This document shows positions 2,521 through 48,750 of a stretch of 64,000 nucleotides of DNA, piece by piece (within the stretch, counting starts at the first letter, position 1; each line of letters opens with the position of its first letter). The notes under the pieces were generated by a model. It did no database searches and was not told where the DNA came from. It worked only from the letters and a program-made list of their open reading frames with translations. Origin of the DNA: Octopus sinensis. Lineage: Eukaryota. The stretch spans positions 36,208,001 to 36,272,000 of the forward strand of contig NC_043015.1 of NCBI RefSeq assembly GCF_006345805.1. Direction: 5' to 3'. A program made the position numbers and the translations under genes.

Positions 2521-4499
2521 GTGAATATGCTGGGGTTCTTCAGCGACCTCCTACTTCTCTACTCGTTCTTCTCATAATCTTCATACCTCCACCGCCGTCT
2601 TCGATATCATCATCGACACCACCCTTTGCCTCCTCCTCATCATCAACATAAATGTTTACAGCATGTGTTTTGCGTGTAATGTTGAGTCCCTGGGCAAATC
2701 CCTTCCTTTCCAAATGAATTTTTTTAAAAAGAGAGAATTCTGGATTGCTTTCCTTGCCATGGATCAATCATACTTGCGTGTGTTAAGACTTCCTACAAGA
2801 TATTGGATCGACAATACTCCTCCAAAAGTTCCTTATTGATTTAGTGTACCAAAGAGAAAGTAATCCGTATGTAATTTATCCTTTTTTGGAATTGTTTATA
2901 AGTTATCCTGAGTAGAAGAGGAAAAGCCCGCGATATTTTCATTTCGCAACCTGATGTACCGACGAAATTTCGAACGTTTCTTTCGTTCACTTCATTGGGC
3001 CACGTTGTCGATCAGAACTACACAAGTCATGTCTTACAATACATAATCCGTTCCCTTTGATTAAGATTTCGTGGAATATTTCAACTGAAATTTCTTAACT
3101 ACGTATCGAGCTTTTATAACGATGTTTCCGTCTCGCAACATTGTCATCGTCATTTTGAAGAGAGATATAAGCATTTGTGAAAAAATTAGCTTTTTGTTTG
3201 CCCATATATTCGATATTTGTAATCAGAACTACTCATTAGCTTTAAAAATTGCTATTAACTATAGAAAAATTGAAGCCTAAATACTCATGCACAAAATCAG
3301 CTGAGCGTTAGGCGGTTTGAGTCATTTGAGTGTAAAACACACTTCTTTCTCTCAGCAAAACAGAAGACAAAATCCTAGCTTTTGTGCAAAACTTTATCGT
3401 GTATTTGCTTCCACCCTCATATTGTGAACGTGGTTTCCTTTTCAAAATTGCCATAATTTCAAAGAAACGGACAGACAACGGAGAGATTGTTTTCATTTAT
3501 ATGATTTATTAGTTTTCTGCGGCTGGTTAAATGGAATTTATTAAAATTATCTACCTATGTTATTGTATTCTTATTTTTTACGGGTCTGCAGCCCTATAGA
3601 CATCATGAATCCCTTCCTACAGGGTCTTATTTTATTGTATTTTAAGGTAATGATAGTACCTCTATGCATTCACTCGTCTTTTCAGGAATTGTTCTATATC
3701 TTCCTTCGACCATAACCTGGCATATTTATGCAAACGTAATATTAGTAACTGCATTTTTATGAAGAAAGGCAATTCTTCGAAACGTTTGATTTTTCACCGA
3801 TCATAAGTAAAATCACTGAAATTTTGAGTAGATGTTTTTATAGATTAACTCTTAACGACTCAGACCATCTCGAGACTCGTGACATTTGGATTCTTACTTT
3901 GTATATTGTCACAGAGATGTTTTCGAATTTGAGCCTGAAATAAGAGAATGTTGAAACTCACCTGTCGATGTGAATACATTCCGTAGGAGTTTACAATCGC
4001 AACGCACCGACGTCGAGTATATCACAACCAATTATTATTATGTTTTTTTTGGTATTCTTACAATAAATTAGAAGCAAAAAATACTTTAATAGCAAACAAA
4101 GCAAAAATCAATATTGAGTGAGCTGGTAACGTGAGAACAGCGTGATGCACGATCTATTTCCAGCATGATAGTGAATTCTGTTAACATCATAGCAATTTAG
4201 TTAAAATATTTGGCATCAGTTTTATTACATGAAGACGAGAAGCGAAACAATGAGGACGAGAGAATAAAAAGCAGAAAAGAAAAGGAGAAAAAATGGAAAT
4301 ATAATTCCTAAACATGAAATAATTATTTAAATAAATCACTCTGTGAGCGAACGGTATTGTTTCCATCTTAATAATGTTCATTCTAATGCGCGTCTCCGCA
4401 TGATATATGACAGAATGGAGATATGATAGCTTTAAAAAAATGATTGCTATCAATTTTATGTGTGTTCATGTGTATGTATATGCGTATGCATGCATGCAT

Positions 4500-4545
4500 G
4501 TTTATATATATATATATATAATTCAGTATTCATGCATGTATATAT

Positions 4546-4605
<60 letters not shown>

Positions 4606-4715
4606 TATACATATATATACATATATGTATGTATATATATATACGAATTTATACACACAAGTGTGCTTAAACACACATACATACAAACACCCATGTATGT
4701 ATATGTGTATACATT
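4500..4715. repeat. (TA)n/(CA)n compound microsatellite
   Basis: Direct dinucleotide runs. Confidence 0.95.
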
Positions 4716-5009
4716 TATGTTTGTGTGCAAAAGGAAAACTGAATCTCCAATCTCCAGTAAATGTCAGTATTGCTATTATTATAACAGGAGAAAATAAAAA
4801 AAAATGAAGGCAAAATAAAAGATTGAAATATAACAAGAGAATATACAGTCTTGCTATAGCTTGCATAATGTTAATTCGTTGTACAGGAAACAGATGTAGC
4901 TCCTCCCCTTATGATAAACACAATATAACATGCTGCTTGCTCCGACACTAATAATATGGTGACGAGAAAAACAGAAAAGAAAAAAAAAGGCAAGATTCTG
5001 ATAATAACA

Positions 5010-5880
5010 ACATCACTACCTCTGTTACTACCACAAATATCAGCTTACCAAAGTCCTCCACCAATTCCACTCTCATTGCAGCCATCGCAGCCCATTTTGC
5101 TGCTATAACAATAACCATTCTGTCGTCTACAATAATGTCCGTCGGCAAAAGCCTTACAATTGCCACCAGTATCACAACCACTATCATCATCATCATCATC
5201 ATCAGCATCATCATCGTCATCATGTGTATCACAGCCACCAGTGCCTCCATCACAACAGTCCCTGCTATCAACCATAGTCCACTAACAATTCTATTACCAT
5301 GAAACCAGCAGAACAGCCACTACCACCACCAATACTACCACCAGCATCGACAACTATACCACCACCTCCATCCCTATCCCCAAATCCATTGTCAATATTA
5401 ACATTATCACTAAGCAACTAGCTCCCAATACGACCACCCACGACGACTACTATTGCTCCACTATCAACCATTGCCCTCATAGACCACACCCGACGCCACC
5501 CGACGCCACTCATCACCGCCACAACGTATTCTATTGCCACAATCATCTTTGACGTCCAAAGCTAAAGCTCTTCTTACTGCACATGTTTACCATTAAAATC
5601 ACGATTAGCAGCATCACTGTGATCACTCTTATTGCCTCCATCCCTAAAATTATTGCCATCAAAACCCATTTCCTCCACAACACGCCTTCACCACAACGAC
5701 AACCACTGTCATCTTCAACTCCACTGCCAAACAACACCACCTCTGTAACTTACTAACAACGCTACCATCATCATTAGCCACCGTTACAATCGTCTTACCA
5801 GCCCCTTCAGTGTAACCTTGTCATTGCCAAAACCACAAACATTAACATCGCACCGGCATCACCAGCAGCGTTGACATCTC
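5010..5880. repeat. Degenerate (CAC/CAT/CAA) low-complexity tract
   Basis: C/A-rich, G-poor decayed trinucleotide sequence with a (CAT)n core near 5183-5222. Confidence 0.7.
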
Positions 5881-6399
5881 GCCATACATTGTAGATAGGA
5901 TGTAGCTAGGAATAGCTGTAAATTTTGTTGTTTGGTTTTGAGGACATCAAAGATGACACAGATTTTGTTTTTAAATATTAATGTACCTAGGACTCCGTTT
6001 CCAAGTGTATTCTTGTATTATCACTTTTGTGAAAGAATTGATAATAAGGATCTTTCTACTGGGAAGTCGAGAAACACCTTAAAAGAGCTTCTTCAATTTG
6101 AGAATAATACCGATCGCAATTGTTGCTGGTAAACTCGTTCGCGCATCGAACAAACTGCATTGCAGTACAATTCTGGCCCCTGTTTAATTCTGTGACATTC
6201 TGGCCCTTTATACTCTGTGTCATTCCGCCGAAAGTTATTTTGTTTTGCCTCTCTCCGGTGTGTATGAAATATAATACTACAGAAATTCTGGGGTCGATTT
6301 AATGGACTAAATCCCTTTTGTTAAAATTTCTGGCCGGTTCTCCTTAAGCAACAACGAGTCCCTAGTTAGTACTTTGATGGTTGACAGCTTGGGAAACCT

Positions 6400-6545
6400 A
6401 GGGCAAAATGTTTAACGGCATTTCGTCTGTCTTTACGTCCTGAGGTCACATTCCACCGAGGACGACTTTACCTTTCATCATCCAGGGTCGTCTTCGAATA
6501 ACACTCTGCTCCAGAATTGAAGGCCTTGTGTCGAAAGAAGAGGGG
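6400..6545 (+). mobile_element. SINE family B fragment
   Basis: ggcatttcgtctgtctttacgtcctgag..ccgaggacgactttacctttcatc matches the 51414 copy. Confidence 0.65.
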
Positions 6546-6629
6546 ATTATTATTACGTTTATCATTATTGTTGTTGTTGTTGTTGATGTTGGTATTGTTG
6601 TTGTTGTTTCTGTTTTAACGCAGGTATTT

Positions 6630-6905
6630 ATGCTATCTGTCAGGTTTGCGAAACCACTTAATTACGAGAACGTAAACAAACCAATACTGGCCGTCAATCA
6701 GTGGCAGGGAACAAACACACACAAGCAGACACATCTTTCTCTACGCACGCACACAACGTTCTTTCGCCGAGATTCTGTCGATAAAATCCGCCCATAAGTA
6801 AATAGTCGGCTCTCGGCTATAGAAGAATCGCTCAGCATGCCATGCAGTGGAACTGAAACCGAAATCACGTGCTTGCAAAGCACAGTTCTTAAAACAACAT
6901 TCATG
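6630..6905 (-). mobile_element. SINE family A, decayed
   Basis: Reverse complement of family A motifs (cgtaaacaaacca, gctatagaaga, gcagtggaactgaaaccgaaatcacgtg). Confidence 0.6.
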
Positions 6906-7559
6906 CCATCAATCTATACGTTTTAATTGCGAGGAATGGTTAGAGTGTTGGAGGGAAGGTTTTATGATATGCGTTCCGCCTGTCCACGGTTTTTATTTCG
7001 AACCCTTAGCGGTCAAATTTGTCTTGCAACTTCTCAGCGTCAATAAGATAATTCTTCAACCAAGATGGAATGGCAAAACTGTTAGACCGTCCGATTTGAC
7101 GGAGACAACTTAGGAGATCTGTTCATGCTCATTCTGTTCCTAGTTCAAATTGTTCTTACTTTACCAAAAAAATAGGACTACTTTCCCAACAAAGAGAACC
7201 CCGCGTCAGAAACCAGAATTGGTCAGTGTGGAGAAGTAGTCCCCAAACTCATATTTACATGACGATAACTGCTAAAAAGAGAGTGTAATATAGCTGCTAT
7301 GTCTAGCATGGTAGGTGGTTACGTAATAGTTTCCGTGAGGGTTCGTATTTAAGCACTGTGGAATGTATGGAGGCGGTGATTATTAAATGTCGCTTTAAAT
7401 AACTCAAATGTGTTATTATTTGGATTATTTTTCTGGTACATTTGTTTATTTATCTAGTTTCTGCTATTGTATTACAATTATATCAAATTGACTCGGTTTA
7501 AAGCCCCTATTTACAATGCCAAAAGAATTTCGAGAAACGTGTAAACATCCATTAAACAT

Positions 7560-7786
7560 CCATATACACTGACACGCACACAAAGATACATGAATACACA
7601 CACATATACATACATGAATACATACATACACACACACATACATGCATACACACATACATACAAACACACATATAAACATACATACAATACAGAGAGAGAT
7701 TCATACAAAGCATTCTTTGATAATAGCAATAGTAATATTCCATATCACACACGCATATATACATATGTATGGATGGGTATGTATAA

Positions 7787-10450: not shown

Positions 10451-12139
10451 CCATTAAAGTAAACCTATTTTATAGCATACACTTCACTATAAATTTTATG
10501 GTGCAGCAAATACAGGATGCGACAGAAAGGCCTCCCATATATTACGAAGCTATTAATGCATCGCTCTTGATGTTAGGCGAGGGATAATGGTGCCTTCACG
10601 CTTTATCGCTTTTCCAATTCTAACCAACATTTTGAAGAGCGCAAACCTTATTTCGGCTGTTAAAACGCGTGTCTGCCTCTTAAATGGGGAGCGTTTACTT
10701 TGCTGTAATCTGTACGGTGTATTTTATTGTAAGTTTTATACAATAGAGTTTATGTAGAATCTATTTATTTGTTGCTTAACCTAGTTGAATATTTTATTGA
10801 ACGATTAATGGTATAAGAGAGATATGGATCAGTATATTTATCGATTAGTTTGCTATAACTTCTATGCAAACATACGTTCACAAGCATAAACACGGTACAT
10901 ATTGGCATGTTTGTGTGTGTGTGCATTCTACCCACACATATGTGTACGCACACGCGATCGCACACATATAATAACGTGTGTGTGTAAGATACATTTTGGC
11001 ATATTTGTTTGTATGTGTGTGTGTGTGTGCGTGCGTACGTGTCTGCATATCTGTATGGAAATTCCTTAAAGGTGAAAACGTCTGAGTCATTAGAAAAATA
11101 GATTTCTTTGCAAAATTTCCCCAGAAGCTCTTTGTTCTGAGTTCAAATCCTCACTTCGCTCTTATTACGAATTCAAAAGAAATTTATAGTTTTTCCTTAC
11201 CATTATCTTGTATCTATTGAATTTCAAATGGATTTTGTTACCGTATCTTCATTAAGGAACTGATGGTTATTGCCCTCAAGCATTTCTTCTGTTATCAGTC
11301 GCTCTCCGACAGTTTTCTGGTCGAGCCTGTGGCAGATGAGACCTCTGATATTCTTGACACCTGAATTATATCCCTGCTCACCTCTATCGGGATGGAAGCT
11401 ACTGTCCTCAAGTGCAAGCCCCATGAGGCCGAGCGGCTGTTCCAATGCATCACCATCGTATATCCTGCGTGGTAACGCCTTTTCTGTTTTGTAACCTGGT
11501 GCCGTCAGAAATGTTTCTATATTGTGAGAGCCAAGATTCTCCCTTAGTCTTTCTATTTAGGTTCCATAAACTAAGCACCAGTTGAGTAAGGGTGGTGGTA
11601 GGGGTCCATGTAATCAGCTTAGCCCCACTCTTCAAATTGCTGGCCTTGTGACTAAATTAGAAAGAATTAACTACTAATGTATTTTGGTCAATTACGCATT
11701 CCATCTCCAAGTTTTTTCCCCTCATATCTCATTTTATTTACTTCACGGTCAATGTTGCATTGGTACACTGACGTTCCAAACATACGGTAGTTCCTTTCAG
11801 CAAGCCATATTAATGGCCGCTACTCCCCTATTAGCTGCCTTGCAATCGGTCACCAATGTAATTTCATTCATCTTTTATTACCCGTTTCAGTCATTGGATT
11901 TCAACCATACTGGAGCACTGCCTTGAAGAGTTTTGCAGAAAAAATCGACTCCAAATACATTTGCAGAACGGAAACCGTGCAAGTCACAGGCGCATGGAAA
12001 ACAGACGTTACATGATTATGATGATGATGATAATGATGATATATATATATATATAGACGCAGGAGTGGCTGTATGGTAAGTAGCTTGCTTACCAAGCGGA
12101 CGTGTTTTTTTTTTCGCTCCGGCAAATGTCACGTTTTAA

Positions 12140-12730
12140 CGTGAATTATTGAACATTTTACGTCAACAGGTGGGGGCGTTCGAATATTGTTGGAAGCCTA
12201 ATGATGTTTATTGCCTGCCGTTAATACTTTTTAACATTAACAACGCTATTTAGTGTTAATAATGTTTGCGGGTAATATACTTCACTTTGCTTCGGATATA
12301 TTTTTCTACCTGTTGGCGTATTTAAAAGTCTCACCTTTTAGTGAGAAATTGTGATTTTTTGAGGAAGGCGTAGCCCCTCCTCAGAAATATTTTTGACTCA
12401 TTGGAGTACCAATTTTCACTTTTGGATTACCACACGTGGAATATTGAACTGTTTGGCAACAGCAGGTAGGACTTTTTGAATATTTTTAGAGGCTTAGCGA
12501 GGTTTATTGCCTGCCATTAATACTTTTTGGCGTCAACGTTAATTAGCGTTAATAATTTTTTGCGGGTAATAAAACTTCGCTTTGCTTCGGATATATTTTT
12601 CTGCCTGTTGTATTTAAAATCTCACGTTTTAGTGAGAAGTGTGTTTTTTGAAGAGGTGTAGCCCTCATCAAAAATAATTCGATTCATTGGAGCACCAATT
12701 TCGCTTTGGATTACCACACGTGGAATATTG
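12140..12730 (+). repeat. Two ~296-bp tandem monomers in the 5'UTR of the ORF1-only element
   Basis: gtttattgcctgcc at 12206 and 12502; ctttgcttcggatatattttt and tttggattaccacacgtggaatattg each occur twice. Confidence 0.9.
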
Positions 12731-13006
12731 CACATTTGGATTACCAGGAGGCACCAAGGATATTCGTGGACTGTTTTTACAAGCACCAGAATTACCAAGG
12801 ATTGCCGTGACGTTTGGCCTGGACTACCTTTTCGGCCAAAAAAAAAATAATTCTGTGCCACATTTGAACTTCTTCCTCTAGCTATCCTTCATTTGAACTC
12901 CGAACTGTTTTTATTGTAACTCTCGTTTCCATTTTGTTTTTTCTTCCCTCTTTCTATCACTTTTGTGTTTTTCCTATTCGAACTGTATTTATATTTTTTG
13001 TTAAAA

Positions 13007-14154
13007 ATGGCAAAGGAATTGATTGTTTGGGAGCTGGAAGCTCCCAAAAAATATGTCAAACAGCTCGAGGATAAGACCGTGGTACTGAGGACTTATTCAA
13101 GGTCGCTCAACGCTATCATGGTGTTTCCGAAGGCGAAAATTATTGAAGAGCTGGCAAACCACATGCCAGCCGTGAAATATATCACACGGGGAGCCAAATA
13201 CGCAACGGTTTGGTTGCTGTTTGACTCCCCAAAAGATGCTTGCGATTTTGCAAGCAAGCCCATTGAGGGCAAAGAAATCTTGTTTCTCCCTAGTTACAAG
13301 AGAGAAAAATTGACAAGACTATGGGTCTGCGGCCTGCCACCCGGCATTGAACCCGAGTGGATAGAAGACTCTATCCGCCGGGGTCTGGGTGACAGGGACG
13401 CAAAAATCCTAAATGTCAATATACAGCCTGCGGCTGATTGGGAGGGGTCTAAGGCTACCTTAACCCTATGGACCCAGTCAGCCAAGAGTCTGGTTTTGCC
13501 GGAATTTTTGAGAATGGCCGGGTCCAAGTATCCGGTGATGCTTGAGGGACGCCCACCAAGTGTCATCTGTGTTTGGAGACCGGCCACATCAAGAAGAGCT
13601 GCCCCAGGGACCAGAGTAGGATCCTGGAGCGGCTGATATTGGAGCCTCTCCCTGCCTCCTCAATGGAGGGAGAGAAGCAAATTGAGGGGGGAATCCTCCT
13701 CCAAAAGAAAGAGAAAGGTGGGGAGCAAAGGCGACCCACCAAAGGACCTGAAAACTGCGGGAGGGGAGAACCCGGTGCGCACAGCTCCGGAACCTCAGCC
13801 TCTCGTGGCCCAGGGCCAGAAGAAAAAGAAAAAAAGAGAAACGGAGCCCCGCCGGCGGATTGCTACACGCAGACGGCGGTTCCCGAGTATCCCGGGTCCT
13901 CTCAGGCGGGTGTGCCGCCTGAGGGACAATTCGTGGAAGATTTTGTGCTCCTCTTTTCTAAAGGAGAAAAGGTGGAAAGCACCGTAAGAAAAGTGAGAAA
14001 GAAAGGACGTTGGGAGATACTCCGAACCTGTACGGAGAACCCCGAGTGGCCTTCGCAGTTAGCTCCGGAGGTCGTGAGAAGGGCTGATGTACACAGGATC
14101 GTGGGTTCCTTCCCAGCGACTCCTTCGAGATTATACCTCTGGACACTGACCTGA
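13007..14154 (+). CDS. Tx1/L1-type ORF1 nucleic-acid chaperone (putative RRM-like region + CCHC zinc knuckle + basic tail), ~382 aa with one frameshift near 13557
   Basis: ATG at 13007 (aaaATGg). Frame 1 ends ..VMLEGRPP and the -1 frame continues KCHLCLETGHIKKSCP (CX2CX4HX4C at 13561-13602), open to TGA at 14154. GC content is higher than in the flanks. Confidence 0.8.
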
Positions 14155-14994
14155 CCAGCGAGTCTTGCCTCAATGAGGCAAGAGCGATGGTCGGCCGTGT
14201 CACATAGGTTGTGTAACATCTTTGTAACATGTGGAAGAGGAGGTTCATTGCCTCCTCTAAAATTTGTAAAATTTGTAATTGAATGTTAATTTTAACATTT
14301 TTGTAACAGATTGAAGAGGAGGTTTATTGCCTACTCTAAAATTTGTAATTTGTAATCATTGTATTAAATGTAATTATTGAACATTGTTTTAGAGAAGCGA
14401 GAGTCGGCGGGCGCTTTTCACCATCTTCATCCACCACCACCATCATCCATTAATGTCCTTGTCCAGCCCGTAGCAAAATTGTTGAAATAAAGTAGCTTGC
14501 TTACCAACCACATGTTTTCGGGTTCAGTCCCACTACGTGACACCTTCGGCAAGTGGTTTCTACTATAGCCTAGGGCCGACCAAAGCCTTGTGAGTGGATT
14601 TGGTAGACGGAAAACGAAAGAAGACCGTTGTATATATATAACTTATTAGTATGGCGATAACTATTATTTTCCGGAAACGCTGCCGTTGTTCTCTTTTAGA
14701 GAGACTTAGTAATTTTAATATCTCTATTATATATATATGTATATATGTACGTGTGTGTCTGTCTGTGTCTGATTTTGTCCCCCCAACATCGCTTGGCAAC
14801 CGATGGTGGTGTGTTTACGTCCCCGTAACTTAGCGGTTCGGCAAAAGATACCGATAGAATAAGTACTAGGCTTACAAATGACAAGTTCTGGGGTCGATTT
14901 TCTCGACCAAAGGCGGTGCTCCAGCATGGCCGCAATCAAATTACTAAAGCATGTAAAAGAGTAAAAGAGTATTTATATATATATATATCAAATA

Positions 14995-44129: not shown

Positions 44130-44899
44130 TGTGATTTGCGAGTTGTGCAATCACTCATCGCCTCCTGTATTTCAGAGGCTGTAATCAGCTTTTCGCAGAA
44201 TCTCGCGTCCGTCACCGAAAGCCGTGGTAGGCTGTCTAGGTACGAATTAAATTTTGCTACCTTCGCCTACCCATCAACCTAACAAATACTCTGTCTAAAT
44301 ACAATCTGGATGACCCGTTGTGTTTATTCTATGTCCGCACTGGCATATCAGGGAAATCCAGTCGGTGCTTGTCAAGAAAGATGGAAAGTCCTGAGTAGGT
44401 TTTCGAGGCTTTTACACCCTGTTCTACTATGTGCTAAACCCAGACAGTCCTTTCGTGCTTCCAAAATACTATTCCAGTCCCCCACTATTACTAAAGTGCA
44501 AGACGTTCCCAAGAATATTTCTAGACGCCTGAAGAAATCTGGCCTTCCAGCCCCTGTTGGAGCATAAACCACCGCTAGTGTAAAGGCGCCACCCACACCT
44601 CCGTTCACGTTGAGGACCACCAACCTACCATCCGGATCCAAGAATATAGCCCGTACTTGGAGATCTAAGGATTTCCGGAGTAACACTGCTACACCACCAC
44701 CCGCTCCCGATAGACCACAAAATTAGAATAACTTGTAGTCTTCGAAAATGGATACTAGAGCTTATTTTCCGGAGCTCCTTCTTTCACTAATGGCAGCCAC
44801 ATGCAAATTAAGCGACCTGAGATCATTGAGCAGGTGACCTTGTTTCCAGGCCAATGCCAGGCCACGCACGCTCACACACCACATTCTCAGCACCGCCAT
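44130..44899 (-). pseudogene. Tx1/L1-like ORF2 remnant: APE endonuclease plus a short pre-RT segment
   Basis: MAVLRMWCVSVRGL..AAISE..GGVAVLLRK..DPDGRLVV..VYAPTG..FF..IVGDWN are the APE motifs. It then jumps to YLDSLPRLS..LITASEIQEAM..KS, which normally precedes the RT domain. Confidence 0.85.
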
Positions 44900-48096: not shown

Positions 48097-48750
48097 TTCT
48101 CCTTCTGAACTCCTCCGGTTCAAAAAATGAATGATCAGAGTAGGTCCTTTTACACGGACCATCCCCACCGCATTTACCCACCTTTCAACAATTTTACTGG
48201 GGGGGGGGACATCCCCCTCTACTTCCGCTTTTCTTTCCAAGTGGAACTTGAAAAAATCGATGAGGGTTTCGCCGAATAGGTAAATATCTGTGTTCAGTCC
48301 TTTCAGTTTCGTCCACCAAACTCCTTAGTCATAGCCACCAGACAGAGGAAAACTCTCTTTCCTTCCCAGCCAAAGGAAGGCGGTGGAGCCATTTTCCCGA
48401 TGGACTCGCCTGATAACAGGATCCGTCCTACACGCGGTGACAGCTGTTCGACAAATCTCCACAAGCCAGTAATGCACGGACTCTGGACGAGTGCGTGCAG
48501 GGCGATTTTGTTGCCCAGCGCACTGCTCGAACAGCTCTGTCTGACAGTACTTCTGTATTTATAGAGCTTGTTTCGAACCGGCAGAGCTCCACGGTGGCAC
48601 TGATTTCTGGAAGGTATCCATAGGCCCCGTCGCCTCCATAGTCCTCTGGAAAAGACCATTTAAGTGATTCTTCCTGACGCCCAGAGTTTCATCAAGAAAT
48701 CGTCGCTCTTACCTGCCACTAACCCCCTAAAACAACCATTCCCCCCGCCG
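48097..48750 (-). pseudogene. Tx1-like ORF2 C-terminal (zinc-finger region) fragment
   Basis: RGALPVRNKLYK..SCSS..ALHALVQSP..LWRFVEQL..FLCLVAMTKE..ERWV resembles the decayed LPVRDKL..CP.C....E...HAL..C....W C-terminus of Tx1/L1 ORF2. Confidence 0.7.

Follow-up and report, generated by a model that had tools for sequence, protein, structure and literature searches.

One of the closest systems described so far is that of crocodilians, in which Tx1-Mar long interspersed elements (LINEs), SINEU passengers and the landing site Mariner-N4_AMi form three tiers (PMC4494074; papers given by PMC identifier are cited for those portions of their text that were available). Here we describe a three-tier system in Octopus sinensis, recognized from a 2,394-bp insert in a short interspersed element (SINE) within a 64,000-nucleotide stretch of contig NC_043015.1 (positions 36,208,001 to 36,272,000, forward strand; this whole stretch is called the window, and coordinates without a contig name refer to it). 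Both systems combine a target-preferring Tx1-type LINE, a non-autonomous passenger and a transposon landing site. Tx1-Mar/SINEU prefers two regions, however, whereas in octopus 26/26 ends fell on a single base within the tRNA-like head of a SINE, and the passengers code for a first open reading frame (ORF1) that is under selection.

The octopus passengers resemble the HAL1 (half-L1) elements of mammals, which are non-autonomous, encode only the ORF1 protein (ORF1p) and had multiple origins (PMC5753468). The passengers likewise encode ORF1p only and have more than one origin (here at least two lineages), but they differ in an ORF1 of the RNA recognition motif (RRM) plus CCHC kind (Type I), in the absence of poly(A) and in a strict target, which the available part of PMC5753468 does not report for HAL1. 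The SIDEs of R1/R2 are also non-autonomous, inherit the helper's site via a common 3' end and are associated with template jumps (PMC3414825). The passengers are similar in having the helper's site and a common 3' end, but SIDEs are non-coding and lie in ribosomal DNA, whereas the passengers are protein-coding and tens of thousands of dispersed copies of their target exist.

Site-specific Tx1 families include Tx1L in Tx1D, Keno (U2), Kibi (TC)n and Koshi (TTC)n (PMC4494074), and RRM plus CCHC is the Type I ORF1 found in Tx1 elements (PMC5203782). The autonomous partner reported below is similar in its APE-reverse transcriptase (RT) ORF2, Type I ORF1 and fixed target, a comparison made by anatomy and not by an RT tree, but the targets described in the available part of PMC4494074 do not include a SINE head. 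For Octopus vulgaris, L1-Tx1 families are listed among those with recent activity, and the accessible text describes no target for them (PMC13282606). The octopus tRNA-derived SINEs OK, OR1 and OR2 are cited in PMC4758252. The system was not reported in the portions seen of the published literature, including PMC12988792, PMC9115989, PMC4758252 and PMC8869645, a scope outside of which fall supplements, Repbase, Dfam and subscription papers (e.g. Kojima and Fujiwara 2004, Bao and Jurka 2010); names for the families may already exist in Repbase, Dfam or the subscription literature.

We conclude that the insert very probably belongs to an old ORF1-only family, as a broken copy that was likely integrated by target-primed reverse transcription (TPRT) with the endonuclease and RT of an intact L1/Tx1-type element that uses the same base.

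An ORF1-only family with a single-base target

The insert is enclosed by two identical 18-bp copies of AAGTAGCTTGCTTACCAA (Table 1), which have no other match in the window even when 3 mismatches are allowed (0.04 expected). Its left flank is the initial 22 nt of the SINE, including the A-box-like motif TGGCTGTATGG, and its right flank is the continuation of the SINE with the B-box-like motif GGTTCAGTCCC; these labels follow the A and B box consensus. An earlier interpretation made from the letters of the window, without database searches (the sequence-only reading), had placed a 2,394-bp insert between identical repeats and between the A and B boxes of a SINE, and this was upheld on both counts. 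The two motifs are 32 nt apart in the SINE and ~2.4 kb apart once the insert is present, a separation that would be expected to silence the SINE promoter.

The target SINE is short, non-coding and dispersed, and its copy number is high (48,177 exact head matches, all empty target sites, as compared with 341 exact filled junctions). When compared with 23 distinct tRNA genes of the same genome (from 30 of 46 tRNA hits), the intact SINE head aligned best to tRNA-Lys(TTT), with a z of about 5, mainly through the T arm and acceptor stem. Neither in the window nor in the intact head was a tRNA called by ARAGORN or Rfam. The insertion point lies directly past the A-box-like motif in a stretch unlike the tRNA gene. 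With its head nearest to tRNA-Lys, this SINE can be likened by description to the abundant octopus SINEs OK, OR1 and OR2, which are reportedly treated by Ohshima and Okada (1994); OK is presumably derived from tRNA-Lys.

A search of the 2.72-Gb genome returned at least 94 matches to the insert (best 40 of 1,882 candidates scored). At the 3' end, GAAATA was followed by AAGTAG in 30/30 of the best DNA matches, window included, and in 30/30 loci picked by ORF1 protein, these two sets of 30 being overlapping. Upstream of the protein-picked loci, 29/30 had a SINE head (26) or the end of another element (3). The least biased test of the target was a genome-wide search with a 27-nt pattern of the element 3' end that contained no target letters. 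It produced 26 matches, with the exact target next in 24 and one change in 2, followed by SINE body in 21 and by the next element in 5. All 26 ends terminate at one base of the tRNA-like SINE head, none of them at an unrelated site. The ORF1-only family shows single-base target specificity; the sequence-only reading had raised the SINE head as a possible target, and its notion of the site as a safe harbour is conjectural.

Junction structure and mode of insertion

For a closer view of filled sites, 8 kb upstream was taken from 60 of the first 64 listed of the 341 filled junctions (contigs 1-3). At 11 of these 60 sites, 5'-truncated copies of 110-1,498 bp lay directly behind intact heads, with left/right matches ranging from 0 to 17 bp. 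Such truncation, with duplications of variable length, is a TPRT signature and rules out recombination at a fixed core; 5' truncations, the fixed 3' end and target duplication together identify insertion by non-LTR TPRT. This bears directly on a circular intermediate that would recombine site specifically, via a DIRS-like tyrosine recombinase, across a AAGTAGCTT core. Full-length copies do resemble attL/attR around this 9-bp core, the knuckle is gag-like and poly(A) is absent; however, the truncations and the 0-17 bp variation would be impossible at a fixed core, and the autonomous element at the site encodes an APE endonuclease and RT but gave no recombinase hit, making such recombination highly improbable.

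The exact left/right match in 89 flanked entries (unfiltered, a few being mis-paired heads) had a mode of 9, a next peak at 15-16 and a maximum of 18, found in the window copy. Sister copies have the inherited left end AAGTAGCTTTCTCACCGAA, indicating that the left repeat is partly element-encoded. In full-length copies it often has subfamily-specific changes regardless of the right repeat, such as AAGTAGCTTCTTA in 12 copies and the AAGTAGCTTTCTCACC type in 5. Position 4, by contrast, agrees with the SINE subtype in the left and right repeats alike (T/T 69, A/A 4, discordant 2; 73/75). Since position 4 tracks the SINE and later bases are subfamily specific, the first few bases appear to be supplied by the target and those after them by a mimic of it in the element RNA. 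The perfect 18-bp target duplication of the sequence-only reading therefore stands as a pair of identical repeats, but as the longest of 89, with a left copy that is partly the element's own.

It was also considered that a single insertion into a SINE master copy was followed by amplification of the SINE-plus-insert composite, with no true targeting. The same head is indeed found upstream of almost all copies, and multi-unit blocks recurring across loci (L315, L316; 1.1-1.3% apart) suggest some co-copying. A composite is contradicted, however, by the 5'-truncated copies behind intact heads, by three deeply split ORF1 lineages at the identical base, by variation of SINE subtype inside one element subfamily, and by array orders and ages that differ. 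The subtype concordance at position 4 and the mixed array orders argue for independent insertion events, and we regard the composite as very unlikely.

At the 3' end, the junction A-run is exactly 3 in 131/132 junctions, with no poly(A). The insert had been read as ending at AATAAA without poly(A); the second part of this was borne out, whereas AATAAA straddles the junction, its last two letters being supplied by the pair of A that opens the right repeat. A poly(A) tail is a criterion for mammalian L1 and HAL1, and the octopus family, with neither poly(A) nor a Transposase_22 hit, falls outside HAL1 in the strict mammalian sense. A terminal motif with a 4-pair hairpin is common to all three families at the site, reading TGCC-N5-GGCA in 117 of 141 motif-bearing ends and TGTC/GACA in 4 (163 examined). 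Stem-loops of this kind mark stringent LINE/SINE pairs (PMC3747384). The 24 nt missing from the window copy correspond to the family's terminal hairpin region.

The passenger ORF1

The window ORF1 reads in pieces, 13007-13636 and 13546-14154, and alignment to three sister copies located three breaks (Table 1), so that the single protein of ~382 aa proposed earlier was not recovered; unbroken full-length relatives are 393-409 aa. The first break falls in a C run whose length varies among all eight closest copies, which makes an assembly error possible there, and contigs from sequencing runs fit real frame breaks and homopolymer assembly errors equally. The CX2CX4HX4C knuckle that had been noticed is encoded in the window ORF1. 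Unbroken relatives contain a pair of predicted RRM folds together with a CCHC knuckle and a basic tail of low complexity. In a structure model of one of them the N-terminal 210 residues were confident (pLDDT ~80-93 per block after residue 10) and matched tandem-RRM proteins (E about 2e-4), so that the passenger protein is, as modelled, a Type I ORF1p. With ORF1 as the query, Pfam gave only weak knuckle hits and none to Transposase_22, and the knuckle was the sole match in a PDB sequence search. ZCCHC3-type RBD/CCHC clusters were found in the Atlas at 0.88-0.93 for part of ORF1, which serves as a lead only.

A tblastn search with the partner ORF2 detected no similarity within L001-L030, the insert included, and no ORF2 was found within passengers at 120 loci, in keeping with the proposed lack of RT and endonuclease in the insert and of ORF2 in full-length copies. 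The passenger and partner ORF1s are 23-25% identical (E 1e-18) with no DNA similarity. In a tree of 63 unbroken ORF1s, those of the passenger formed their own long-branch clade (SH-aLRT 100) outside the partner clade and nested in none of the autonomous lineages sampled. The ratio of nonsynonymous to synonymous divergence (dN/dS) from the ORF1 N terminus to the knuckle was 0.14-0.29 (median 0.22, dS up to 1.8; 45 non-independent pairs from 10 chosen copies), showing at the sequence level that ORF1 has been kept under purifying selection between subfamilies.

The low ORF1 identity, the separate clade and a dN/dS of ~0.22 indicate an old lineage rather than an ORF1+ORF2 element that lost its interior in a single event. 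Within the window there is nothing beyond the view of a single copy, which is all that favors a deletion; it is refuted by copy number and divergence (the at least 94 matches above), and the passenger type occupies 32/60 sampled filled sites under purifying selection between subfamilies, leaving it with next to no probability. The HAL1-like, ORF1-only family of the sequence-only reading is in this way substantiated: the family is multi-copy and spreads as a unit, and its ORF1 is selected and homologous to that of an L1-group LINE. Its supposed youth applies to the window insertion, which at 2.4% from its nearest copy appears fairly recent, but not to the lineage, which is old. As an observation of its own, identical 5' ends were found on ORF1s of distant subfamilies (L148, L161, L174 versus L243, L255), which suggests 5' untranslated region (UTR) exchange between distant passenger subfamilies.

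An autonomous partner at the same base

The last unit at the 60 sampled sites was a passenger in 32, ORF2-bearing in 16 (8 of them near full length), the second ORF1-only lineage in 1 and untypable, being too short or decayed, in 11, as tallied by eye. An intact element, L227 (locus G000:C8:54101627-54109620), is ~5,446 bp long with unbroken ORFs of 467 aa (ORF1) and 1,130 aa (ORF2). Its ORF2 has Exo_endo_phos, RVT_1 and zf-RVT domains and no recombinase hit, with human L1 ORF2p as the closest solved relative, and zf-CCHC was found in its ORF1. Its predicted APE endonuclease, RT and C-terminal zinc finger identify the partner as a member of the L1/Tx1 group. Assignment to Tx1 is putative, drawing on domain anatomy (Type I ORF1), on site specificity and on the RRM model of the passenger homologue; relatives recovered in the ORF2 and ORF1 searches included no named Tx1 reference, and a metagenome scan with an ORF2 relative gave zero loci.

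Partner-lineage copies at ≥80% identity ended on the SINE site in 29/29 cases. Sister-lineage copies (65-68%, n=16) were off site, running into (TC)n in 7, a Kibi-like target, and into other sequence in 7, with the end not shown in 2. Among these sister autonomous lineages (L211-L226), several have an unbroken 1,129-aa ORF2, one runs into (TC)n in the manner of Kibi, and L219 and L223 carry the same 25 nt past the 3' end, perhaps another fixed target. An autonomous element with the same 3' end and target as the insert had been anticipated, as had a three-tier system, and both were found: a SINE with abundant empty sites, an ORF1-only family and an intact ORF1+ORF2 element at the same base.

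Partner copies are 0.6-1.3% from the nearest copy and young passengers 1-2.5%, so that their ages overlap. The common site, the common 3' motif and these ages suggest that the passenger is mobilized in trans by partner ORF2p. A different autonomous element of the same target, extinct or not yet found and outside the L227 lineage, could instead be the helper. Such a helper would accord with the low ORF1 identity and lack of DNA similarity between passenger and partner, and older ORF2 subfamilies (L122, L138, L142, L180; 66-81%) are present at the site. On the other hand, at the 120 loci picked by ORF1 or element no ORF2 lay behind a passenger ORF1 (2 hits were outside passengers), the one long candidate (L140) was a passenger with an unrelated nested LINE, ORF2 at the last unit of the 60 sampled sites was always of the partner lineage, and partner and passenger ages overlap. 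We consider a different helper unlikely.

A second lineage, arrays and other units at the site

A second ORF1-only lineage (L061-L090, e.g. G000:C12161:17487-18686), ~1.45-1.5 kb long with an N-terminal extension, was found at the same SINE base, also within the AAGAAG SINE subtype, with the junction on site at 27/30 loci. In the same ORF1 tree it is a separate clade (SH-aLRT 95) outside the partner clade, and its dN/dS is 0.20 (15 pairs).

Elements are also stacked head to tail in arrays, with one repeat between units and mixed orders. At L303-L305 (G000:C7:10436000-10465999), at least 11 junctions span ~25 kb behind one SINE head, with several ORF1 types. A further unit lay upstream at 4/60 sampled sites as compared with 0.7% occupancy (p about 9e-4). 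This excess of stacking is real; it could stem from hot occupied sites, from co-copying by read-through or from template jumps. The units of one array are ~1% to 10% from their nearest copies, a rough proxy of age, and in only about half of the arrays is the youngest unit the one nearest the head, so that array ages and orders neither show nor exclude a single-event concatemer origin for all arrays.

Several other units were observed at this site. In one L303-L305 unit, ORF1 resembles that of the partner (72%) and is not followed by ORF2; this may be a third lineage of ORF1-only elements. At L309:1182-2900, a passenger in the same site is preceded by a unit of ~1.7 kb that contains a further ORF1-like frame of about 500 codons. 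L041 (G000:C9746; 466 bp) is a SIDE-like non-coding miniature that keeps only the element 5' and 3' ends, at the same base. The LINE nested in the L140 passenger copy (oriented 4470-7640) is ~3.2 kb and RT-bearing. The long units of L140, the C7 array and L309 were checked as candidate autonomous passengers and rejected.

Proposed mechanism

Inherited left ends suggest that transcription would likely start within the target mimic, driven by the 5' monomers, which by analogy may act as a promoter. The selected ORF1p, with its two predicted RRMs and knuckle, would then likely coat its own RNA in cis, and partner ORF2p would likely recognize the shared TGCC-N5-GGCA hairpin. The nick made by the endonuclease would lie in the bottom strand, at GGT^AAGTAGC. 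RNA cleavage may be set by the junction AATAAA to fall some bases into the downstream SINE, and pairing of this RNA end with the nick would explain the exact junction without poly(A). Second-strand joining would produce the 0-18 bp duplication, and the 5' mimic would rebuild the target, possibly giving rise to the stacking seen in arrays.

Several points weigh against this mechanism and the conclusion behind it. The support for trans mobilization is sequence based. The searches score best candidates only, so that old off-target copies could escape, and 3/30 second-lineage copies (L067, L080, L081) had no junction in their 1.5-kb flanks. With its 4 pairs the hairpin is short, and several passenger ends have a different minimum-energy fold, the TGTC/GACA double change may be one event, and the window copy lacks the hairpin, which was either lost after insertion or is not essential. 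The ORF1 tree is a quick, midpoint-rooted version, and in it the passenger ORF1 is no nearer to the L227 partner than to other lineages, making parent and helper uncertain.

A broader scheme is offered tentatively, as possible but not the outcome we would expect. In it, every family would have a 5' SINE-target mimic, so that insertions rebuild the site and provide a far better target than the empty SINE. One helper would support ORF1-only hyperparasites of several unrelated and long-lived kinds, about twice as numerous as itself and each with its own ORF1p, in mixed arrays of ten or more, the first hit splitting the SINE promoter.

Features of the window locus

The features of the locus are listed in Table 1. 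The second conserved part of the SINE trails 33/44 empty heads. It also occurs on the minus strand a little upstream of the insert, window 11878-11956 and 14889-14956 forming an inverted pair that flanks the insert. No RNA run was listed as a holder of the sequence. One assembled contig covers 12106-14512, from a run that is guessed to be RNA and gives no proof of expression. Read joints that skip the insert represent empty SINE copies from anywhere and say nothing on an empty allele here. Elsewhere in the window, decayed fragments of related ORF2s lie on the minus strand, an endonuclease part (40%) at 44278-44899 and a C-terminal part (27-46%) at 48178-48696.

Table 1. Coordinates of the host SINE, the insert and its parts in the window
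Feature	Position	Strand	Remarks
Host SINE 5' end, tRNA-like head	12056..12077	+	A-box-like motif 12066-12076; same head upstream of nearly all copies
Insertion point	between 12077 and 12078	+	Head/insert boundary
Left repeat	12078..12095	+	Target duplication; in sister copies partly target mimic from the element 5' end
5' UTR	12139..12733	+	Two ~295-bp monomers, 81% alike
ORF1	13007..14154	+	Broken near 13551, 13690 and 14117 in the window copy
3' UTR duplication, 79-bp spacing	14214..14348	+	89% alike
Insert 3' end ...TTGAAATA	14460..14489	+	Common to the autonomous partner; window copy without 24 nt at 14474/14475
Right repeat (target sequence)	14490..14507	+	First AA completes AATAAA
Remaining host SINE	14508..14971	+	B-box-like motif 14521-14531, body to ~14640, microsatellite, second conserved part ~14751-14971

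Implications

Every part of this system has a precedent, but the literature searched contained no case of ORF1-coding passengers whose single-base targeting is inherited from a helper. ORF1 relatives are deposited as uncharacterised Octopus proteins, and octopus repeat annotation will consequently miscall passenger copies as genes. The partner is an intact and recent APE-type element whose site is a single defined one and whose 3' signal is short; it is of interest for target choice by endonucleases of this type, and it is a possible insertion tool for cephalopods. Passenger and partner form a natural pair that separates the LINE proteins, with ORF1 selected in elements that are obliged to borrow ORF2, and the pair makes testable why half-L1s retain ORF1, namely a cis-acting ORF1p together with a trans-acting ORF2p.

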